The notes under the pieces: generated by a model | The model's database searches: none | The model's input: only the letters and a program-made list of their open reading frames with translations | What the model was told of the DNA's origin: nothing | Origin: Candidatus Blackburnbacteria bacterium | GTDB lineage: Bacteria > Patescibacteriota > Microgenomatia > UBA8517 > UBA10165 | Direction of reading: 5' to 3' | Length of the DNA: 64,000 nt | Assembly: GCA_016183565.1 (NCBI GenBank) | Contig: JACPEJ010000001.1 | Span: forward strand, 550,479 to 614,478 | In this document: positions 35,126 to 43,431 of the stretch, piece after piece | Layout: each line of letters starts with the position of its first letter | How positions within the stretch are numbered: the stretch's first letter is position 1 | Program-made: the position numbers and the translations under genes

Positions 35126-35199
35126 CGGGGAGTAGCTCAGTTGGCTAGAGTGCGCGGTTTGGGACCGTGAGGTCGGAGGTTCGAGTCCTCTCTCCCCGA
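35126..35199 (+). tRNA. tRNA-Pro (TGG)
   Basis: CGGGGAGTAGCTCAGTTGGCTAGAGTGCGCGGTTTGGGACCGTG... has anticodon loop TTTGGGA, T-loop TTCGAGT and acceptor CGGGGAG/CTCCCCG. Confidence 0.85.
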
Positions 35200-36889
35200 C
35201 TGAAAGTGAATCCGCAAAATTGAGCCTGGAGTGGCTCTGCGCGGGAGGGGTCGCGCAGAGCTCTGCAAAGCCACTTTTATACGAGACTGCAAGTTGCCGA
35301 TTAGTCAAAAAGAAGTTCGAGCCGACAGTTTTTCCGAAGAATGCTAATTCTTCGGATGTATTTTTTGTGCGCGCGATTTTTGCGCACGAAAGTGCGCTAC
35401 CAATGAAGTTTTTGAAAGGTTCGAGCCAACTCGAACCATTTTGTTTTATTTTTTAATTTTTCTTCGAAAAATTCGTTCTTTTTATTTTTATAAACATCAG
35501 GTTCAATAATTCCTTCTAAGTAACAATCAAGTAGTTTATTAAGTTTTATATCCAAGTCTTTTAATTTTGTTTGGAGTTTTTCAATGTTCTCATGAATGGA
35601 TACAGTTTCTAATTTTTCATCTTCATCTAACCATTTATACCAATCCTTAGCCCAAGTTTCTGGTAGAGCTACATCATCAATGGCTTTTCTAAATTGGGTT
35701 TCAAGTTCTGGCTCGGAGATGTAGGGCTGATTACAAGGTTTTATTTTCTTAGTACATCTATAGTAGATATACTCAACAGTTCGATTTGTCCCTTTATAGA
35801 ATTTTTTGTGGGATTCAGCAGTGATAGTTGCTCCACACTCACCACATCTCATTAAACCCATAAAAGCAAAATTATACCTTCTTTTTTTACGCCTGTCTTT
35901 AAACTCAAGTTGTTTCTGGACTTGCTGAAAAAGCTCTTTAGAGATTGCTACTTTATGAGTACCTTCGTGATATTCCCCGTTATATTCCATAATGCCAACA
36001 TAAAATCTATTAGCTAAAATTCTGCGGATTTCATTGATATGCAAGGGCTTACTATTTTTTCTTTTAAGGTTGAATTTATGGAGAAGAAAGGCAATATCAG
36101 TAAATGTTTTATTTCCCTCCGCAAACAGTTCAAACGCTTTTTTAATAGCTCTTAATTTCTCTGGTTCAACATCTATCCCTCTAGTTTTTGGATTATTGAT
36201 ATATCCAAAAGGAGCTTTACCAGGATAAACACCATTTCTTAATTTTTGTCTTAGCCCTCTTTTTACATTTTCTGATAAGTTGTCTACATAATATTTTGAT
36301 TGGCCAAAAGCGATATTTAACATGAATTTTCCTTGAGGAGTATTCTCGAACCAAGAAGTTGGAAATTTTAAGTCCTTCAATTTCCCAGTATCTAAAAGGT
36401 AAATTATTTTTCCACCATCAATACTATTTCTTGCCAATCGGTCGGGATGCCACGCAATAATCCCACTTACTTGTTGTTTTTCAATCTTCTTTAATACTTC
36501 AGCAAATTTCTCTCTGCCCGGAACTTTAGCAGTTTTTTCTTCTTCAACAAATTCAGTAATTTCTAAATGTTCTCTTTTAGCATATTCTTTTAGCTCGGCA
36601 ATTTGAGCCTGTATGGACAGAATTTGTTTATCTTTTTCTTCCCTGGACTTTCTACAGTAAGCAATATATTTCATAAAATTATCTCTCTCTTAAAAGTTCT
36701 TTAAGCGAGCTTGCGAGCAGGAATTTCTTTTCTAAGAAATTCCAAAATTTTCGCGTCCTCCCGTTTTTTGTTCTTTTTCACTACGGCAACTTGCAGTCTC
36801 GTATAAAAGTGGCTTTGCAGAGCTCTGCGCGACCCCTCCCGCGCAGAGCCACTCCAGGCTCAATTTTGCGGATTCACTTTCAGTCGACC
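35197..36889. mobile_element. Serine-recombinase module bounded by perfect ~104-bp inverted repeats
   Basis: 35197-35300 is the exact reverse complement of 36786-36889 (cgactgaaagtgaatccgcaaaattgagcctggagtggctctgcgcgggaggggtcgcgcagagctctgcaaagccacttttatacgagactgcaagttgccg). The left repeat starts in the last 3-4 nt of tRNA-Pro. The only gene inside is the recombinase. Confidence 0.7.
35397..36674 (-). CDS. Large serine recombinase (resolvase/invertase catalytic domain + recombinase domain + zinc ribbon)
   Basis: N-terminal MKYIAYCRKSREEKDKQ...IIAWHPDRLARN catalytic domain, a central recombinase domain, and the zinc ribbon CGECGATIT...YYRCTKK. 425 aa. Confidence 0.85.
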   Translation of the reverse strand: MKYIAYCRKSREEKDKQILSIQAQIAELKEYAKREHLEITEFVEEEKTAKVPGREKFAEVLKKIEKQQVSGIIAWHPDRLARNSIDGGKIIYLLDTGKLKDLKFPTSWFENTPQGKFMLNIAFGQSKYYVDNLSENVKRGLRQKLRNGVYPGKAPFGYINNPKTRGIDVEPEKLRAIKKAFELFAEGNKTFTDIAFLLHKFNLKRKNSKPLHINEIRRILANRFYVGIMEYNGEYHEGTHKVAISKELFQQVQKQLEFKDRRKKRRYNFAFMGLMRCGECGATITAESHKKFYKGTNRTVEYIYYRCTKKIKPCNQPYISEPELETQFRKAIDDVALPETWAKDWYKWLDEDEKLETVSIHENIEKLQTKLKDLDIKLNKLLDCYLEGIIEPDVYKNKKNEFFEEKLKNKTKWFELARTFQKLHW

Positions 36890-36975
36890 TTTATCGAAAA
36901 ATCCGAACTCGCTTCAAGTCGAATCGGTAGGCCCGCCAGAGGCGGGCCATCTTATCCGCTCAGCCTTCGGCCCAA
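36886..36975 (+). repeat. Inverted repeat X (left copy); partner at 39046..39140
   Basis: gtcgacctttatcgaaaaatccgaactcgcttcaagtcgaatcggtaggcccgccagaggcgggccatcttatccgctcagccttcggcc is the reverse complement of 39046-39140. It contains the perfect hairpin ggcccgcc-agag-gcgggcc. Confidence 0.7.
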
Positions 36976-37231
36976 ACTCTTAAACTGTCGGCTCGAACGG
37001 GTTGCTTTAGCAACCCCAAAAAACGCGAAAATTTTTTAAAGAACTTTTTCCTTTTTGTTTTTCACTTAAAAGGCGCAACCGGTGGACTCAACAAGAATTG
37101 TGTTCTGTTGTCCGATTGCGCCATTAAAAAACACAATTCATAAAATGTTGAGTCCATGAAAAATATATACTGAAGAATGATAAATTTCAACTGGGATTAT
37201 TTATATCAAAACTAAACAAATAAAAATAACA

Positions 37232-37633
37232 ATGGAACTTAAAACATCTTTGTGCAATACTAAATTTGTGAAGTATAAACTTGTACTAACATTGGCTTTA
37301 ACATTTGGCATTATACCTTCTCTACTTTTGCATAGATTTATTTACGGAATTTCTCATGAAAGTGCTGTATATCTAGAATGCAGATTATTATCAAGCTGTT
37401 CGCATTATTACGAGGGTCTAGCACTAAAATTTGTTTCACTTGTTTATTTAATTTTGTATAGCATAACAGTGCTATACTTTCCTTATAAAATAGCAAGAAA
37501 GGAGAGTACGTCTCTTCTTTCATTGCAAACCATCAAAGAAATGGATCTCAAAAGTATTCTAATCGTAATTTTTGTAAGTTTACTATATCTACCGTTAATC
37601 TTTTTTCTGAGTTCCTCAAATAATCCCTTGTGA
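37232..37633 (+). CDS. Small membrane protein (hypothetical) inside the IR-flanked cassette
   Basis: 133 aa with 3 TM helices. Very AT-rich. Confidence 0.4.
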   Translation: MELKTSLCNTKFVKYKLVLTLALTFGIIPSLLLHRFIYGISHESAVYLECRLLSSCSHYYEGLALKFVSLVYLILYSITVLYFPYKIARKESTSLLSLQTIKEMDLKSILIVIFVSLLYLPLIFFLSSSNNPL

Positions 37634-37705
37634 TGGGTTTTTCCGTCTCTTAATGGCTTTTAACTGAAATTTGACTTTTCCAATAAAATATGTGTAAATT
37701 AAATA

Positions 37706-38044
37706 ATGGCTAATAATAGTGTGAATTCTTCTAGTAGTAAATCCTCGGGCATTAAAACAATAGTCACTATTATAATGTTGTTCTTGCTTTACCCGGTAGG
37801 TGTAATTATGATGTTTGTATGGATGAAGTGGCCAATATGGGTAAAAATTATAACGACCCTTGTAATGTTTTATGTTTTTTTTGTAATTATTGGGGCAGTA
37901 GCGGGGTTAGTAGTTCAGGTAACTGATCCTTATGGAAAAATATTTGAAGCACAGCGTAGGCAATGTACAGCTCAATGCGAAAATGTCCCTAATGCAACTG
38001 CCTGTATGACTGAATGTCTAGAGAAGTTGCGAGCTCCGAAATAA
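37706..38044 (+). CDS. Small membrane protein with Cys-rich C-terminus (hypothetical)
   Basis: 112 aa with 2 TM helices. C-terminal CTAQCENVPNATACMTEC. Confidence 0.4.
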   Translation: MANNSVNSSSSKSSGIKTIVTIIMLFLLYPVGVIMMFVWMKWPIWVKIITTLVMFYVFFVIIGAVAGLVVQVTDPYGKIFEAQRRQCTAQCENVPNATACMTECLEKLRAPK

Positions 38045-38051
38045 ATTTAGA

Positions 38052-38771
38052 TTAAACTACCAAAAAGTATTTTTTAAAAGGTAAGGATATTTGACCTTCT
38101 TCATTTACAAATTTATCCGTAGACAAAGATAAGCATGCAATTTTAGATTTACCATATAGAAATAATAAATGACCACTGTTAGAAGTTGCTGTTAACCAAG
38201 ACTTTTTAATTACTTCAACATTGTGAACTTGCCAAAATAGCTGAAATAAAGTTATTGGGATCATAAGAATTAGTATCATATTGATAACAAATTTAATTGT
38301 TGATAAATCATTAATACCTGTAAATTTATTTAAGAGAAAAGGTCCAAAGAAATATAAGGAGATGCCAATAAGGATCGCGTTTACTAGGTTTTGCAAACGT
38401 CTGTCTACAAAATAATTATTATTAGTCTCTATTAAGAAGGCAGGAACTGGAAATAACTTAAGTTCAAAGCAAAGCTTCTTAGATATAAGTTGGTCATCTG
38501 GGTAAACTTGTCTAATTAGAACTTCAATCGGCCGAAATGGAATAAAGTTATAAAGCCAATCTTTGAATGTAATAATTCCAGATTCTTTAGATTTGAATTT
38601 TTTAATAGCATCCTTGATAGTTTTAGTAGTAAAAAATATTGGAACACCGATAAAAATGACTACAGACATTATTATAAGAACTATTGTTGCTAAATCACGA
38701 AGTTGTTTGTTAGAGGTGGGATTAGAAATTATGATTGCTCCACCAAAAAGCACTATCACAACTAATAACAC
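38052..38771 (-). CDS. Polytopic membrane protein (hypothetical), convergent with the two genes above
   Basis: 239 aa with 5-6 TM helices. Confidence 0.4.
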   Translation of the reverse strand: MLLVVIVLFGGAIIISNPTSNKQLRDLATIVLIIMSVVIFIGVPIFFTTKTIKDAIKKFKSKESGIITFKDWLYNFIPFRPIEVLIRQVYPDDQLISKKLCFELKLFPVPAFLIETNNNYFVDRRLQNLVNAILIGISLYFFGPFLLNKFTGINDLSTIKFVINMILILMIPITLFQLFWQVHNVEVIKKSWLTATSNSGHLLFLYGKSKIACLSLSTDKFVNEEGQISLPFKKYFLVV

Positions 38772-39045
38772 CAGAATAAAAGTTAATAGAAAAGATTTTA
38801 TAGCTTTAGTATAGCAAATCTACTATCTATAATTCTCTAAAAAAAGAGAAGATAAAATCAGTACCGTTCCCCTTAAAATTTCTGCTACAATATCAGGGGG
38901 AGAAAAGTTTTCGCGCACGGGAGGGCGGGGCAAGAAAACATTAAATTGTTTTTGTGTCCTTGTCCGCCATAGGCGGACTATAAATAATAAAAATCGCGCG
39001 CATTTAAAATACTTTCTAAGTATTTTGCAAAAAATACATAGAGCG

Positions 39046-39140
39046 AGGCCGAAGGCTGAGCGGATAAGATGGCCCGCCTCTGGCGGGCCTACCGATTCGA
39101 CTTGAAGCGAGTTCGGATTTTTCGATAAAGGTCGACTAAT
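39046..39140 (-). repeat. Inverted repeat X (right copy)
   Basis: Exact reverse complement of 36886-36975. Ends 8 nt before tRNA-Gly(TCC). Confidence 0.7.
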
Positions 39141-39147
39141 TCAAAGT

Positions 39148-39221
39148 GCGGGTGTAGTTCAATGGTAGAACACCACCCTTCCAAGGTGGATGTGGCAGTT
39201 CGATTCTGCTCACCCGCTCCA
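39148..39221 (+). tRNA. tRNA-Gly (TCC)
   Basis: GCGGGTGTAGTTCAATGGTAGAACACCACCCTTCCAAGGTGG... has anticodon loop CTTCCAA, T-loop TTCGATT and an encoded CCA. Confidence 0.85.
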
Positions 39222-39327
39222 AACCGGACATAAGTCCGGTTTTTTTTGTTTTAGCCAAGGAATACACTTTTCCCCGAGTTCGAGCCTAAATTTTTACTAA
39301 AATTGTTTTAGCCTGGAGAGTTGCAAT

Positions 39328-39348
39328 ACCGGTAATGGGAATCGAACC
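39328..39348 (-). other. tRNA 3'-end-like fragment (T-loop + acceptor 3' strand) without a tRNA body
   Basis: The reverse complement reads aGGTTCGATTCCCATTACCGGTa. The T-loop/T-stem is identical to that of tRNA-Gly(GCC), but no 5' half is present. Possible att-site remnant. Confidence 0.35.
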
Positions 39349-39362
39349 TAAAAGTTAGTTAA

Positions 39363-40133
39363 CTATTTACTCTTCTCTAATTTAAAAAAGTGTTCTTCTA
39401 TCTTTTCTGCTTTTCTCATAACCATTTCATAAACTAAGATTAATGGTGTAATTGTAAGAAGAATTTGTCCGACCTCATCTTCACGCATGCAAGCAATATC
39501 TTTTTGATAGACCATTTTGCCATCAATTATTCCCCAATATGGCTCGAGAGCAAGGTAATTTGGATGGGTAAACTCAGAGAAAAAATCATAACTTTCCAAA
39601 ATATAATCTTTATTTTTTGATCCTATTGCAGTTAGCTGGGCATTCAGTAATTTGTTTACTTCTCTTACATAATCTGCTGAATGGAAAATCTGTGGTGCCT
39701 TAGAAAAAGTAGTTTTGCCAGACATTGTTTTAGTGTTCTGACCCATGGTTGCAACATATAATATTTCCCAAACTTCTTCATGGTTAGTCATTTTTTTATT
39801 GATCTTACGAACCATATGTGCAAGTGCACCAATTGTTTCTATGCATGAGCGAACCATACTGGCCGCTTCTGGATTTTGAGCATTGATTCCAGAAATTAAT
39901 AAGTTCAATTGATGAATTAATTTTATATGAATAATGTTGGTGTAATGAGAAAAATGGTGATACAAGTCGACACTTTTATTACCCGTAGGTTCAGGAGGTG
40001 GAACTATCTTTCTCCTCTTCTTTAGTTGCTTATAAAGACTATCCAATTCAATAAGTTGTTTTTTAAATGAATGGTATTTTTGCCAAGTTTTTTTCATTTT
40101 ATAACAGCGATCCCTATGGCTAAGATGGATCAC
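39363..40133 (-). CDS. Hypothetical protein, divergent from the SIR2-like gene
   Basis: 256 aa with no recognisable motif. Probable start at the internal MKKTWQKY. Confidence 0.4.
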   Translation of the reverse strand: MIHLSHRDRCYKMKKTWQKYHSFKKQLIELDSLYKQLKKRRKIVPPPEPTGNKSVDLYHHFSHYTNIIHIKLIHQLNLLISGINAQNPEAASMVRSCIETIGALAHMVRKINKKMTNHEEVWEILYVATMGQNTKTMSGKTTFSKAPQIFHSADYVREVNKLLNAQLTAIGSKNKDYILESYDFFSEFTHPNYLALEPYWGIIDGKMVYQKDIACMREDEVGQILLTITPLILVYEMVMRKAEKIEEHFFKLEKSK

Positions 40134-40317
40134 TTGTGGGCCATCAGCTCTCTAAAAGTAAGATACCTTCACCACAGCGATCATTCGGTACTAGTATTTT
40201 AACATTTAACTAGGCCTCTTCATAACTAAAGGCTTAAAAAGCCAACAAAACTATGCGATTGATTAACTCTTTGAGTTATATAACGATTTCTAGCTGAGCA
40301 AGCTATAATATGGACAA

Positions 40318-41316
40318 ATGGAAGATTATAAGAAACATATGAGTAATCAGATACCCAAGGAGAAAAACCTAACTATGGGCGCGCCTCATTTAGTTCTCTT
40401 GGGCGCCGGAGCTAGTAAAGCTGCTTTCCCAAATGGTGACGCAAATGGTAAAGAATTGCCATTAACTAAAGACTTGGCTAGAGTATGCAAGCTTGGAGAG
40501 ATTGACCCCCAAGCAGAAAAGGCAAAGGACTTTGAAAGTTACTACTCCGATTTAACAGACACAAAAATCAAAAGCGCAATGGAATCAAGAATATTCGACT
40601 ATTTTTCTTCTTTAAGGTTGCCTACTGAACCTACAATTTACGATTACTTAGTACTTTCACTTAGAAAAAAGGATGTAATTGCCACATTTAATTGGGACCC
40701 CTTTTTATCTCAAGCGGGGCAAAGAAACCATCAAATAGGCTCTATGCCGCAAGTTTTATATTTACACGGCTCGGTGTTTGTTGGATACTGCATGAAAGAT
40801 AAGACAATGGGTATGGCTGGCTACCCATGTAGTAAATGCAATAAACCCTTTACCAGACCTGATTTACTTTATCCCGTTAAAGAAAAGAACTATCAAAAAG
40901 ACGAAATCATAAAAACAAATTGGGACTATTTACAAAAAGTTCTGAAACGGGCCTACATTTTTACAATTTTTGGTTACAGTGCACCGAAAACTGATGTTGA
41001 AGCTATTGATTTACTCAAGAAAGGCTGGGGCGACAAAGCAAAAAGAAATCTTGAAGAAGTAGAAATCATAAATCGACCCGGGGCCGATAAAGACAAGTTA
41101 AGAGAGGTATGGGACGAATTTATACATACACACCATTATGGAGTCATTGATGATTTTTTTAACTCCTGGCTGATAAAACACCCCAGACGAAGTTGTGACG
41201 CTATGTGGGAAACTTTAATGATGGTAAGGCCATATAAAGAAACGCCACCACCGATAACGAAAAATTTGAATGAGCTACAAAAATGGTTTTCAGATAGACT
41301 TACTCAATACGAATAG
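40318..41316 (+). CDS. SIR2-family (sirtuin-like NAD-binding) protein, defence-type SIR2_2-like
   Basis: LVLLGAGASKAAFPNGD (GAGxS Rossmann motif), ATFNWDPFL (cf. TQNIDGL), LYLHGSVFVGYCMKDK...YPCSKC (zinc CxxC pair), IFTIFGYSAPKTD (GTS-like). Confidence 0.65.
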   Translation: MEDYKKHMSNQIPKEKNLTMGAPHLVLLGAGASKAAFPNGDANGKELPLTKDLARVCKLGEIDPQAEKAKDFESYYSDLTDTKIKSAMESRIFDYFSSLRLPTEPTIYDYLVLSLRKKDVIATFNWDPFLSQAGQRNHQIGSMPQVLYLHGSVFVGYCMKDKTMGMAGYPCSKCNKPFTRPDLLYPVKEKNYQKDEIIKTNWDYLQKVLKRAYIFTIFGYSAPKTDVEAIDLLKKGWGDKAKRNLEEVEIINRPGADKDKLREVWDEFIHTHHYGVIDDFFNSWLIKHPRRSCDAMWETLMMVRPYKETPPPITKNLNELQKWFSDRLTQYE

Positions 41317-41606
41317 ACCAAATTTGGCGTTTTTCGTAAAGCGAGAGTCGTCAGTTATGATGACTCTCTACTTATGATTTAAACTGTGTATAGTGTTTAT
41401 TAAAAACCTCATAACTTGGGATATTTAGATATTCTTTCAATTCATTAAGTTGTACAATTAACTTAGGAGTAATGTAGTACCGTAAGCCGATTTTAATGAA
41501 AGAAATAAACGGCAAATCTGGTTGAAGTAGGTATTGTTTGATATATTCATCCAGGCTAAACAGGTTCGAGCAAAGTACGGTGACCAGCTCTGAAAAGTGA
41601 ATAACT

Positions 41607-42443
41607 ATGAAAAAGAATACCTCACTGGCAATTTTTGAGAACTTTAAGATACGCCGTGTTTATGTTGAAAAAACCGAGACATGGTATTTCTCGGTAGTGG
41701 ATATTATTCATGCATTAGATGTAAGTTCTGATGCTAGGAATTATTGGAAAGTATTAAAAAGCAATTTGAGAAAAGAAGGAAGTGAGGTGGTTACAAAAAT
41801 TAACCAACTGAAAATGACAGCCTCTGATGGAAAAAGCTATAAGACAGATGCCACTAACACAGAAACCATCCTTCGCCTTATCCAATCTGTTCCCTCCAAA
41901 AAAGCAGAACCCATAAAACTCTGGCTTGCAAAAGTTGGCTATGAACGTATGCAGGAAATGACTGATCCGGAAAAGGCTCTCAACCGCTCAAGAGAATATT
42001 GGCAAAAGCAAGGCCGAAGTGAAAAGTGGATACAGCAGCGGATGATGAGTCAGGAAACACGAAATAAGCTAACGGACTATTGGAGTGGGCATGGGGTCAA
42101 AAAAGACCAGGAATTTGCTATTCTTACCAATATTATTCATCAGGAGTGGTCTGATCTGTCAGTCAAAGATCACAAAAATTTGAAAGGGTTAAAGACCCAG
42201 AATCTTAGAGATCATATGAGCGAAGCTGAACTAATTTTTACTGCCTTGGCCGAACTTTCTACTCGGCAAATCGCCGAACGCGTCCGGGCAGAAGGGTTTG
42301 ATCAGAATAAAATTCCAGCCAAAAAGGGTGGGAAGATTGCCAAAGATGCCAGAATGGCACTTGAAGAAAAAACAGGGAAATCAGTAATCACCGGAGAAAA
42401 TTTCTTGCCTCACTCAAAAAAAGAAAAGGCGAAGTTTAAATAA
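41607..42443 (+). CDS. Bro-N domain protein (DinD/phage antirepressor-like)
   Basis: The N-terminal AIFENFKIRRVYVEKTETWYFSVVDIIHAL resembles the Bro-N fold. 278 aa. A frameshifted paralog lies at 42857-43431. Confidence 0.55.
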   Translation: MKKNTSLAIFENFKIRRVYVEKTETWYFSVVDIIHALDVSSDARNYWKVLKSNLRKEGSEVVTKINQLKMTASDGKSYKTDATNTETILRLIQSVPSKKAEPIKLWLAKVGYERMQEMTDPEKALNRSREYWQKQGRSEKWIQQRMMSQETRNKLTDYWSGHGVKKDQEFAILTNIIHQEWSDLSVKDHKNLKGLKTQNLRDHMSEAELIFTALAELSTRQIAERVRAEGFDQNKIPAKKGGKIAKDARMALEEKTGKSVITGENFLPHSKKEKAKFK

Positions 42444-42454
42444 AGTAAAATACG

Positions 42455-42736
42455 ATGTGTGAACGAGAGGGCTATCCAATTACCGAAACTCAAATTGAAG
42501 AAGTTAGACCTGATTTAGTTGCTTTAAAATTGCCAAGAGGAGTTTATAGTATGGGTATGGGTGGTGCTCAATTTTATCAAGAAGCAAATGCTGATTGGAA
42601 ACAATCTAATAGAGTCGACAAACCATTTGCTCTTGGCTATAATGACGTAGTTAGGATTGAGGGAAATGCTAATGAGCTTTGGCAAAACGTTAACTATAAT
42701 TGGGATGGAACCCCCAAGAAAACTGATTCGCGCTGA
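42455..42736 (+). CDS. Hypothetical small protein
   Basis: 93 aa ORF starting 12 nt after the Bro-N gene. No motif. Confidence 0.3.
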   Translation: MCEREGYPITETQIEEVRPDLVALKLPRGVYSMGMGGAQFYQEANADWKQSNRVDKPFALGYNDVVRIEGNANELWQNVNYNWDGTPKKTDSR

Positions 42737-42856
42737 TAAATAACTTCATTAACTTCAGGATGATTCTCTTTGTTATCAATATTGTGTAATACAGCTACAC
42801 CAAGAATAACTTCTGGGTATTGCTTAAATATTTCGTCTTTTATAATCAGATTCATG

Positions 42857-43431
42857 TTATTTCTTCAGTAACTTTCTACCCTTCTTCTTGGGTAAATAAT
42901 TTTGTGCAGTTATTACTTTTCTTCCAGTTTCTTTTTCCAAATTAGATCTAGCATCCCCGGCAATTTTACCACCACGTTTTGAGACTTGTTTGTTTTTCTC
43001 AAAACCTTGAGGATGTTCTGTTTTGGTAATTTCTGTGGTGGCTGCTTCACCAAGCTGAGAGAATAAAAGCTCCAGATCGTTCATATGATCTCGCAGATTT
43101 TCCCTCCTAAATCTTTTTATACTGCGATGGAGTAACGCCAAATGTTGCTCTGGATAATTCGGAAAATTCCCTCAGTATTGGCGCAATTCATCTTCTGTTT
43201 ACCACCGCTGGTTTCTATTGCAAGGGTATGTACAATTTGTACCCACCCCTTAGAGAGCTCTGGGTCACGAATTCTCATACGCTGGATATATTGCTTTGAG
43301 TCACTTGAGTCAATCAGTGCTAAAACTACATCCTCAACTACAAACCACCACTCATTTTTATGTATAGTCTTTCTTATTTTTCTATTTCGAAAGATAGCTA
43401 TTTTAGTTGTTTGTACTGTTTCTTGATTCAT
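42857..43431 (-). pseudogene. Split/frameshifted Bro-N (DinD-like) paralog
   Basis: ORF 43117..43431 is a Bro-N domain (IFRNRKIRKTIHKNEWWFVVEDVVLALI). ORF 42857..43141 matches the C-terminal part of 41607..42443 (NLRDHM..ELLF..L.E....EI.....GF..NK...K.GGKIA.DAR..LE..TG..VIT..N.LP). The two halves lie in different frames and overlap by 25 nt. Confidence 0.55.

Follow-up and report, generated by a model that had tools for sequence, protein, structure and literature searches.

A stand-alone SIR2-fold protein family missing from curated libraries, found in an accessory island of a Candidatus Blackburnbacteria genome

In a 64,000-nucleotide stretch of the genome of a Candidatus Blackburnbacteria bacterium, a member of the Candidate Phyla Radiation (CPR), an open reading frame (ORF) of 332 amino acids (aa) at positions 40318..41316 of the plus strand encodes what I read as an intact representative of a large and as yet unnamed family of stand-alone proteins with a SIR2 fold. 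This family is uncharacterised and uncatalogued. On balance, its members probably cleave nicotinamide adenine dinucleotide (NAD) and work alone, as accessory effectors against phages or other mobile elements; the role in defence is hypothesised from genomic context only. An earlier description of this stretch (hereafter the window), made from its letters without database searches and here called the original prediction, had presented the gene as a defence-type SIR2 protein, divergently paired with an ORF of 256 aa on the minus strand (39363..40133). Both reading frames are present, and the assignment to the SIR2 fold holds; the pairing does not.

The assignment can be followed from individual residues. 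Family alignments of 48 and of 241 sequences were made, and in both of them four motifs of the 332-aa protein fall on invariant columns: LVLLGAGASKAAF (residues 25-37), ATFNWDPFL (122-130), LHGS (149-152) and FGYS (218-221). The first of these contains the Rossmann GAGxS motif, which is common to sirtuins and defence SIR2s; the second had been likened to TQNIDGL in the original prediction, and FGYS agrees with the GTS-like motif that was announced there. In the 48-sequence alignment 46 positions are invariant at a mean identity of about 47%. Among the 241 sequences N125, H150, G151, G219 and P223 are invariant, and D127, G29/G31, S33, R290 and E332 are nearly so.

The family was compared by hhalign with Sir2Tm, the sequence of which was confirmed to be identical to 1yc5_A, and with the SIR2 domain of ThsA, confirmed against 6lhx. 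The alignment with Sir2Tm (E 2.7e-5, probability 74.6%) places H150 on the catalytic H116, and C158, D161, C171 and C174 on the zinc ligands C124, C127, C148 and C151. The original prediction had described a sirtuin-type zinc site, with LHGS followed by two CxxC pairs; LHGS and the zinc ribbon are there, whereas the first pair is not one of cysteines, as the site of the window protein reads C158-M-K-D161 ... C171-S-K-C174. Cysteine is found at position 158 in 229 of the 241 sequences, at 171 in 231 and at 174 in 227, and position 161 is occupied by Asp, His or Cys in 210 of them (126, 55 and 29, respectively). As all three residues are able to bind metal, and given the match with Sir2Tm, a homologous zinc site is very likely retained in the family. 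I propose that N125 and D127 correspond to N99 and D101 in the TQNID motif of Sir2Tm, an equivalence assigned by eye because hhalign gapped that segment. In the order of elements, TFNWDP comes after strand 2, where sirtuins have TQNID. The FGE of Sir2Tm (F162-G163-E164), which forms the acyl-lysine tunnel, aligns with Y185-P186-V187, so that this motif is not kept; the family conserves Tyr or Phe at position 185 and P186. An RP following the zinc site was rejected as a counterpart of Sir2Tm: it lies one position out of register, and the family does not conserve it. The alignment with ThsA (E 0.066, probability 0.8%) is confined to FGYSAPxTD against VGFSFTDPN.

None of the curated libraries Pfam, NCBIfam, PADLOC and PHROGs recognises the 332-aa protein. 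Its sole sub-threshold Pfam match is AbiH (16.3 bits, E 0.011, with a gathering cut-off of 30.9 bits), a profile that is also matched by 3 of the 48 family members, over residues 79-233 and with a best E of 0.0015. The Pfam model SIR2 (PF02146) gives no match to the protein at E<=0.1 nor to any of the 48 members at E<=1, and SIR2_2 (PF13289) is unmatched by the protein and by the 48 members scanned singly. A profile search of the PDB sequences returned nothing significant, with Sir2Tm at E 0.72. An AlphaFold2 model, computed from the 48-sequence alignment, has a mean predicted local distance difference test score (pLDDT) of 93.3 and a predicted template modelling score (pTM) of 0.91, and all 28 of its Foldseek matches in the PDB at E<=1e-3 are SIR2-family proteins (Sir2Af1/2, PfSir2A, SIRT5, SIRT6, Sirt2, Sir2Tm, SirTM, ThsA and DSR2). 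Classical sirtuins are at the top: Sir2Af1 (1ici) is matched at E 8.5e-7, ThsA (8btp) at 5.4e-6, SirTM (5a3a) at 5.5e-5 and DSR2 (8wyd) at 1.4e-4. Phosphoglycerate kinases come next, at E>=2.5e-3. The template modelling scores (TM-scores) are modest (0.3-0.54), and the protein is therefore a divergent SIR2 fold. According to DSSP, the model has Rossmann strands at residues 24-28, 120-123, 145-149, 214-218, 247-251 and 274-277, besides two short ribbon strands at 155-158 and 163-166. The resulting architecture consists of a six-stranded Rossmann core, a helical insert, the zinc ribbon and a C-terminal helical extension of about 75 aa. This extension is specific to the family and carries the motifs FIHTHHY and HPRR, which are invariant and unique to it.

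The typical length in the family is about 335 aa, close to the approximately 346 aa of AbiH. Around 10% of the family representatives carry further extensions of 100-200 aa, N- or C-terminal, in which no Pfam domain was found. Two unknown domains occur at either end of the protein in members from outside the window: one (MPSNFRFLVICR...) makes up the N-terminal extension of P0182 and the C-terminal extension of P0171, and the other is placed likewise in P0139 (N-terminal) and P0173 (C-terminal). A sub-clade formed by P0182, P0171 and P0184 has FFCRxHYG instead of FIHTHHY.

Bonhomme et al. (bioRxiv 10.1101/2024.09.18.613514) separate true sirtuins, with a Rossmann sheet of exactly six strands and a zinc tetrad of cysteines, from the defence 'sirims', which have at least seven strands and systematically lack the zinc site; ThsA, DSR, pAgo-SIR2, PD-T7-2 and AbiH are sirims in their scheme. 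By these published criteria the modelled architecture of the present family is, unexpectedly, of the true-sirtuin type. By membership in sequence models the protein fits neither the sirtuins nor the defence SIR2s, and the GYSxPxxD motif and the weak affinity to AbiH point away from the sirtuin type. I found no description in the literature of a defence SIR2 that bears zinc, or of the family itself.

With the classical sirtuins (Sir2Tm/CobB, Sir2Af1/2) the family shares its best fold matches, the six-stranded sheet, the GAGxS loop, a TxNxD-like motif, and the aligned catalytic His and four zinc-ligand positions. It differs from them in that PF02146 is unmatched and TM-scores are low, in the second zinc ligand, which is mostly Asp or His, in Y/F-P-V in place of FGE and GYSxPxxD in place of GTSLxVxP, in the C-terminal extension, and in being accessory and mobile rather than housekeeping and syntenic across the lineage. 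AbiH of Lactococcus (PF14253) is likewise a single-gene protein with a SIR2-like fold that resides on mobile elements, and no other curated family shows sequence affinity to the 332-aa protein; however, the affinity of AbiH stays well below the gathering cut-off, and AbiH is reported as a sirim without the zinc site that the present family has. The defence SIR2 NAD-cleaving enzymes, or NADases (ThsA, DSR1/DSR2, SIR2-HerA, SPARSA), are similar in the significant fold matches with ThsA and DSR2, in the resemblance of FGYSxPxTD to the VGFSFTDPN of ThsA, and in what may be a defence-island context. In contrast to these enzymes, the family matches neither PADLOC nor SIR2_2, has no SLOG, HerA, Argonaute or large sensor domain and no partner, and combines a zinc ribbon with six strands; Sir2Tm also aligns better to it than ThsA does. 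SirTM, of the ADP-ribosylating class M, offers both a fold match and the precedent of a bacterial accessory sirtuin with a chemistry other than deacetylation. A published account (PMC11490716) places it beside macrodomain and lipoylation-related genes, but macrodomain, GcvH-L and LplA2 are not among the top neighbour families of the SIR2-like gene. Given the failure to match PADLOC and SIR2_2 and the sirtuin-type architecture, the contention of the original prediction that this is a defence-style SIR2 rather than a deacetylase is not established.

Homologues of the 332-aa protein number 4,812 at E<=1e-3 in a database clustered at 90% identity, and at 50% identity they form 1,679, 988 and 485 clusters at thresholds of E<=1e-3, 1e-10 and 1e-30, respectively. 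Relatives at 42-53% identity are present in at least 560 species-representative genomes from many bacterial phyla and one archaeon, and none of these genomes holds a relative above 53%. The taxa include CPR, Saccharibacteria, Planctomycetes, Proteobacteria, Firmicutes, Acidobacteria, Chloroflexi and Methanolinea, with Legionella pneumophila (Lens plasmid NC_006366), Vibrio coralliilyticus (NZ_CP009266), Mesobacillus subterraneus DSM 13966 and Lysinibacillus FJAT-14745 as culturable hosts. Besides one strain-level relative of 93% identity, the nearest homologues are at most 66% identical and lie on unrelated contigs. The gene was found on nine plasmid records, including the Lens plasmid of Legionella pneumophila, where it is named 'hypothetical protein' wherever the feature is annotated; a search of 50,697 phage genomes did not find it, and among 2.9 million viral contigs 14 carry it. 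The distribution of the family is patchy and horizontal, on plasmids and a few prophage-like contigs, with about 45-50% identity to the window protein across the phyla. The original prediction had set the protein apart from housekeeping sirtuins, and this stands: wide conservation across the lineage was not found, no Pfam SIR2 model is matched, and the gene sits on plasmids and in islands.

Gene neighbourhoods were compared at 98 loci, of which 80 come from species genomes, 14 from viral contigs and four from the closest relatives. No conserved neighbour of the SIR2-like gene was found in the 80 genome loci, the largest flanking cluster being present in 5 of them, in keeping with the stand-alone protein that had been predicted. 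This cluster, the only neighbour that recurs, is a Peptidase_S24 (LexA/repressor-like) protein, mostly from Saccharibacteria. In 61 of 75 loci the SIR2-like gene and the gene upstream of it share a strand, and in 29 the two are at most 60 bp apart. Defence-type domains were seen in 6 of 20 tightly coupled upstream genes examined, a count that has no genome-wide background behind it: an Mrr endonuclease, an Mrr and ResIII helicase protein, a type ISP restriction-modification protein, a type I S subunit, putAbiC, and a protein with PNP, EAD7 and HNH domains. PADLOC recognised SoFic, BrxH, HmaC, SngC, a type III methyltransferase, mad3/8 and several PDC candidates among 146 immediate neighbours. 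Serine recombinases are located within 8 kb in 6 of the 98 loci. Often the SIR2-like gene stands last in line after defence genes of various kinds, restriction and Abi among them, or it is close to serine recombinases. A 62% relative (L110, 130-1857) has a Schlafen/AlbA_2 gene 94 bp downstream.

Two side observations concern particular loci. In four from Saccharibacteria (L012, L014, L023 and L028) the Peptidase_S24 gene, of about 226-238 aa, is directly upstream on the same strand. The 66% relative (L089, 1831-6918) is found in a small element together with helix-turn-helix, serine recombinase and DnaD-like genes.

There is no synteny between the two closest relatives, L088 (93% at the aa level) and L089. 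L088 is 90% identical to the window in DNA over 40112..41316 only, apart from a 220-bp patch (41380..41600), so that the match stops short of the start codon of the neighbour at 40097, and L090, a relative of the divergent neighbour, has DNA in common with the window only over 39308..40190; a breakpoint must therefore lie between the two genes, each of which retains the sequence upstream of it. The unit that is common with the closest relative is the SIR2-like gene with about 200 bp upstream, without a conserved partner. The neighbour is also shorter than was predicted. Its ORF can be read from a GTG at 40133, which gives the predicted 256 aa; however, an internal ATG at 40097 is the start in the NCBI model and in each of the 14 homologues, which gives 244 aa and thus a true intergenic gap of 220 bp. 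None of the 98 SIR2-like loci holds a homologue of this neighbour, and none of the 14 loci of the neighbour's homologues, which represent six distinct contexts, holds a SIR2-like gene.

These comparisons bear directly on the two-gene defence system of the original prediction, in which the 256-aa protein would be the sensor and the SIR2-like protein the NADase effector. Two divergent genes so close together in an accessory island, one of them without an assigned function, would suit such a system, but they do not co-occur at other loci, their families have 4,812 and 15 members, the stretches shared with L088 and L090 each cover one gene of the pair, and the homologues of the neighbour overlap or abut serine recombinase genes instead. 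As a conserved system the pair is refuted, and I give it practically no credence. Downstream, the Bro-N/DinD-like gene that PADLOC labels PDC-S13 could form one defence module with the SIR2-like gene, being its next gene on the same strand, at a distance of 290 bp, and itself a defence candidate; a homologue of it is found 1.9 kb upstream of the SIR2-like gene in L044, and PDC-S04 (Bro-N) genes are neighbours at two other loci. However, L044 is the only one of the 98 loci with such a homologue, another gene separates the shared sequences in L088, and the 'S' of the label presumably denotes a single-gene candidate, so that a joint module appears very unlikely. A shade less probable still is a housekeeping sirtuin of the Blackburnbacteria lineage, a deacetylase like CobB. 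GAGxS, the Asn and Asp, the His and the zinc module are all present and speak for such an enzyme, but PF02146 is unmatched, the gene is located in a recombinase-bearing island, and the low identities beyond the strain-level relative, on unrelated contigs and in the species-representative genomes alike, do not describe a gene conserved in its lineage.

More serious is the alternative of a non-immune NAD-dependent modifier, either a divergent true sirtuin acting as a deacylase or an ADP-ribosyltransferase like SirTM, which would act on a conserved cellular protein or nucleic acid in an accessory regulatory, stress or toxin role. The six strands and the zinc ribbon on the ligands of Sir2Tm, the classical sirtuins and SirTM among the fold matches, the strong conservation, which suggests a constant substrate, and the housekeeping genes among many neighbours argue for it. 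The lack of any match to Pfam SIR2 even at E<=1, the replacement of FGE, the missing SirTM-type neighbours, the patchy spread on plasmids and in islands, and the over-representation of defence genes among tightly coupled neighbours (6 of 20, without a genome background) argue against it, and I regard it as possible though doubtful. The reading that I prefer, a single-gene anti-phage or anti-mobile-element effector, has its own difficulties: six strands and a zinc-ligand tetrad are marks of non-immune sirtuins, no PADLOC defence model is matched by the window protein or by any of the 48 members, housekeeping genes are common among the neighbours, the counts of defence neighbours lack a proper genome background for enrichment, and high conservation without a variable sensor domain is unusual for a direct phage sensor.

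If this effector reading is correct, the SIR2-like protein would bind NAD+ and cleave its nicotinamide-ribose bond by means of N125, D127 and H150, and would do so alone. The outcome could be depletion of NAD+, as is proposed for AbiH and as is brought about by DSR and ThsA; alternatively, the zinc-ribbon cleft may be used to ADP-ribosylate or deacylate a macromolecular target. Regulation or binding of the substrate would most likely fall to the C-terminal extension, with FIHTHHY and HPRR. Such extreme conservation, together with the lack of any variable sensor domain, speaks against phage proteins of many kinds being recognised directly and favours a conserved cue or substrate. Taken further, the family could be a third immune lineage of SIR2 proteins, with a single gene, which keeps the zinc-ribbon cleft, modifies a conserved phage or host macromolecule rather than depleting bulk NAD+, and uses FIHTHHY/HPRR as trigger or substrate site. 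I think this unlikely; if true, it would contradict the reported rule that defence SIR2s never have the zinc-ribbon cleft.

At present the absence of the zinc module draws a clean line between defence SIR2s and true sirtuins. This family keeps the module; it has thousands of members, occurs on plasmids and in putative defence islands, and escapes Pfam, NCBIfam, PADLOC and PHROGs. As a defence gene it would add a compact single-gene system and blur the boundary between sirtuins and sirims; otherwise it would be a widespread and mobile NAD-dependent enzyme. The immune repertoire of the CPR is poorly charted. In practical terms, there is no two-gene system of the kind proposed, and tests of the family should be easy, as only one gene is involved and culturable bacteria are among its hosts.

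Table 1. Features of the window discussed in the text, with positions counted from its first nucleotide
Feature	Position	Strand	Basis and remarks
332-aa SIR2-fold gene	40318..41316	+	ORF call; NCBI HYU80_03045 'hypothetical protein'
GAGAS (residues 29-33), NAD-binding glycine-rich loop after strand 1	40402..40416	+	G29, G31 and S33 (nearly) invariant in 241 sequences
TFNWDP (residues 123-128)	40684..40701	+	N125 in 241/241, D127 in 240/241; follows strand 2 (E120-123)
LHG (residues 149-151), H150 predicted catalytic His	40762..40770	+	H150 and G151 in 241/241; hhalign
Zinc-ribbon module C158-x2-D161 ... C171-x2-C174	40789..40839	+	hhalign, family counts, model strands
Non-coding region upstream of the SIR2-like gene, shared with the closest relative (presumed own promoter)	40112..40317	+	blastn against L088
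244-aa all-helical neighbour	39363..40097	-	start-codon comparison; NCBI HYU80_03040 'hypothetical protein'
Bro-N/DinD-like protein, 278 aa (HYU80_03050)	41607..42443	+	Pfam Bro-N 3.6e-9; phrog_15286; PADLOC PDC-S13
Complete tRNA-Gly(UCC) beside the 244-aa gene	39148..39221	+	ARAGORN
Large serine recombinase, 425 aa	35397..36674	-	Pfam Resolvase, Recombinase, Zn_ribbon_recom
Perfect 103-nt inverted repeats flanking the recombinase	35197-35299 and 36784-36886		repeat search
Perfect 91-nt inverted repeat pair	36882-36972 and 39047-39137		repeat search

The window proteins of 244, 332 and 278 aa are exact matches to the NCBI entries given in Table 1, and all three are called 'hypothetical protein' there. 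A scan of 39000-41700 for consensus promoters and terminators was uninformative, with 5 promoter-like sites against 8.3 expected.

The neighbour had been described as a protein without a recognisable domain. Indeed, the libraries hold no match to it above threshold, and its fold, an all-helical bundle in the AlphaFold2 model (pLDDT 80), gave no significant match in PDB or BFVD, only spurious ones to helical bundles and G-protein-coupled receptors; a profile search of the PDB sequences ended at a best E of 1.4. However, 13 of the 14 family members examined have sub-threshold matches to DUF5677 (PF18928), the best at E 1.4e-4 over profile positions 26-160 of 166, and the window protein itself scores 15.6 bits, below the gathering score of 27.1. 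These sub-threshold matches suggest that the 244-aa protein is a distant relative of DUF5677. Blackburnbacteria and Cerribacteria account for all 15 members of its family, and large serine recombinases are present in 7 of the 14 loci of its homologues. At L005 (6001-8038), L111 (8001-10020) and L112 (2792-4811) the homologue converges with a large serine recombinase of 431-437 aa, with an overlap of 14 nt. DUF5677 is reported to be enriched beside serine recombinases and co-transcribed with them, and in the same study five of nine ORFs gave phage protection, the DUF5677 ORF not being one of them (PMC12632615). The recombinase linkage of the 244-aa family fits this enrichment, although its genes converge with the recombinase gene, overlap it or are a few kb distant from it, and do not show the downstream, co-transcribed arrangement of that study. 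The 244-aa gene is a separate cargo linked to large serine recombinases, and it has no functional tie to the SIR2-like gene. The convergent arrangement with the 14-nt overlap is kept in two distinct contexts.

The surroundings of both genes bear out the accessory island of the original prediction, as they also hold the recombinase and the PADLOC candidate, and they bear out its invertible region, since the two perfect inverted repeat pairs lie around and next to the large serine recombinase. The two adjacent repeat-bounded segments (35197-39137) look like a double invertible switch. The 103-nt pair begins at the last bases of a tRNA-Pro (35126-35200), and the 91-nt pair encloses genes for small membrane proteins of low GC content (31%) and ends 10 nt before the tRNA-Gly. 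The 278-aa protein matches PDC-S13 at E 1.1e-119, with residues 1-275 on positions 1-275 of the 286 in the profile. It faces a second, disrupted Bro-N/DinD-like copy on the minus strand (region 41607-43431), which is split into a 104-aa ORF with the Bro-N N-terminal part (43117..43431) and a 94-aa C-terminal ORF (42857..43141). Both copies are linked by a 41-nt inverted repeat of 73% identity (42183-42223 and 43077-43117), with a 93-aa ORF in between.

The original prediction had placed the SIR2-like gene between a 3' fragment of a tRNA and Bro-N genes. Bro-N is indeed found downstream; the tRNA, however, is complete, and is accompanied by short T-arm-like fragments between it and the 244-aa gene, at 39277-39295 on the plus strand (GTTCGAGCC) and at about 39316-39349 on the minus strand (reverse complement GGTTCGATTCCCATTACCGG). 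As these match no full tRNA within the window, the ends of the island are not definable from attachment-site (att) repeats. The fragments may be remnants of old integration sites.

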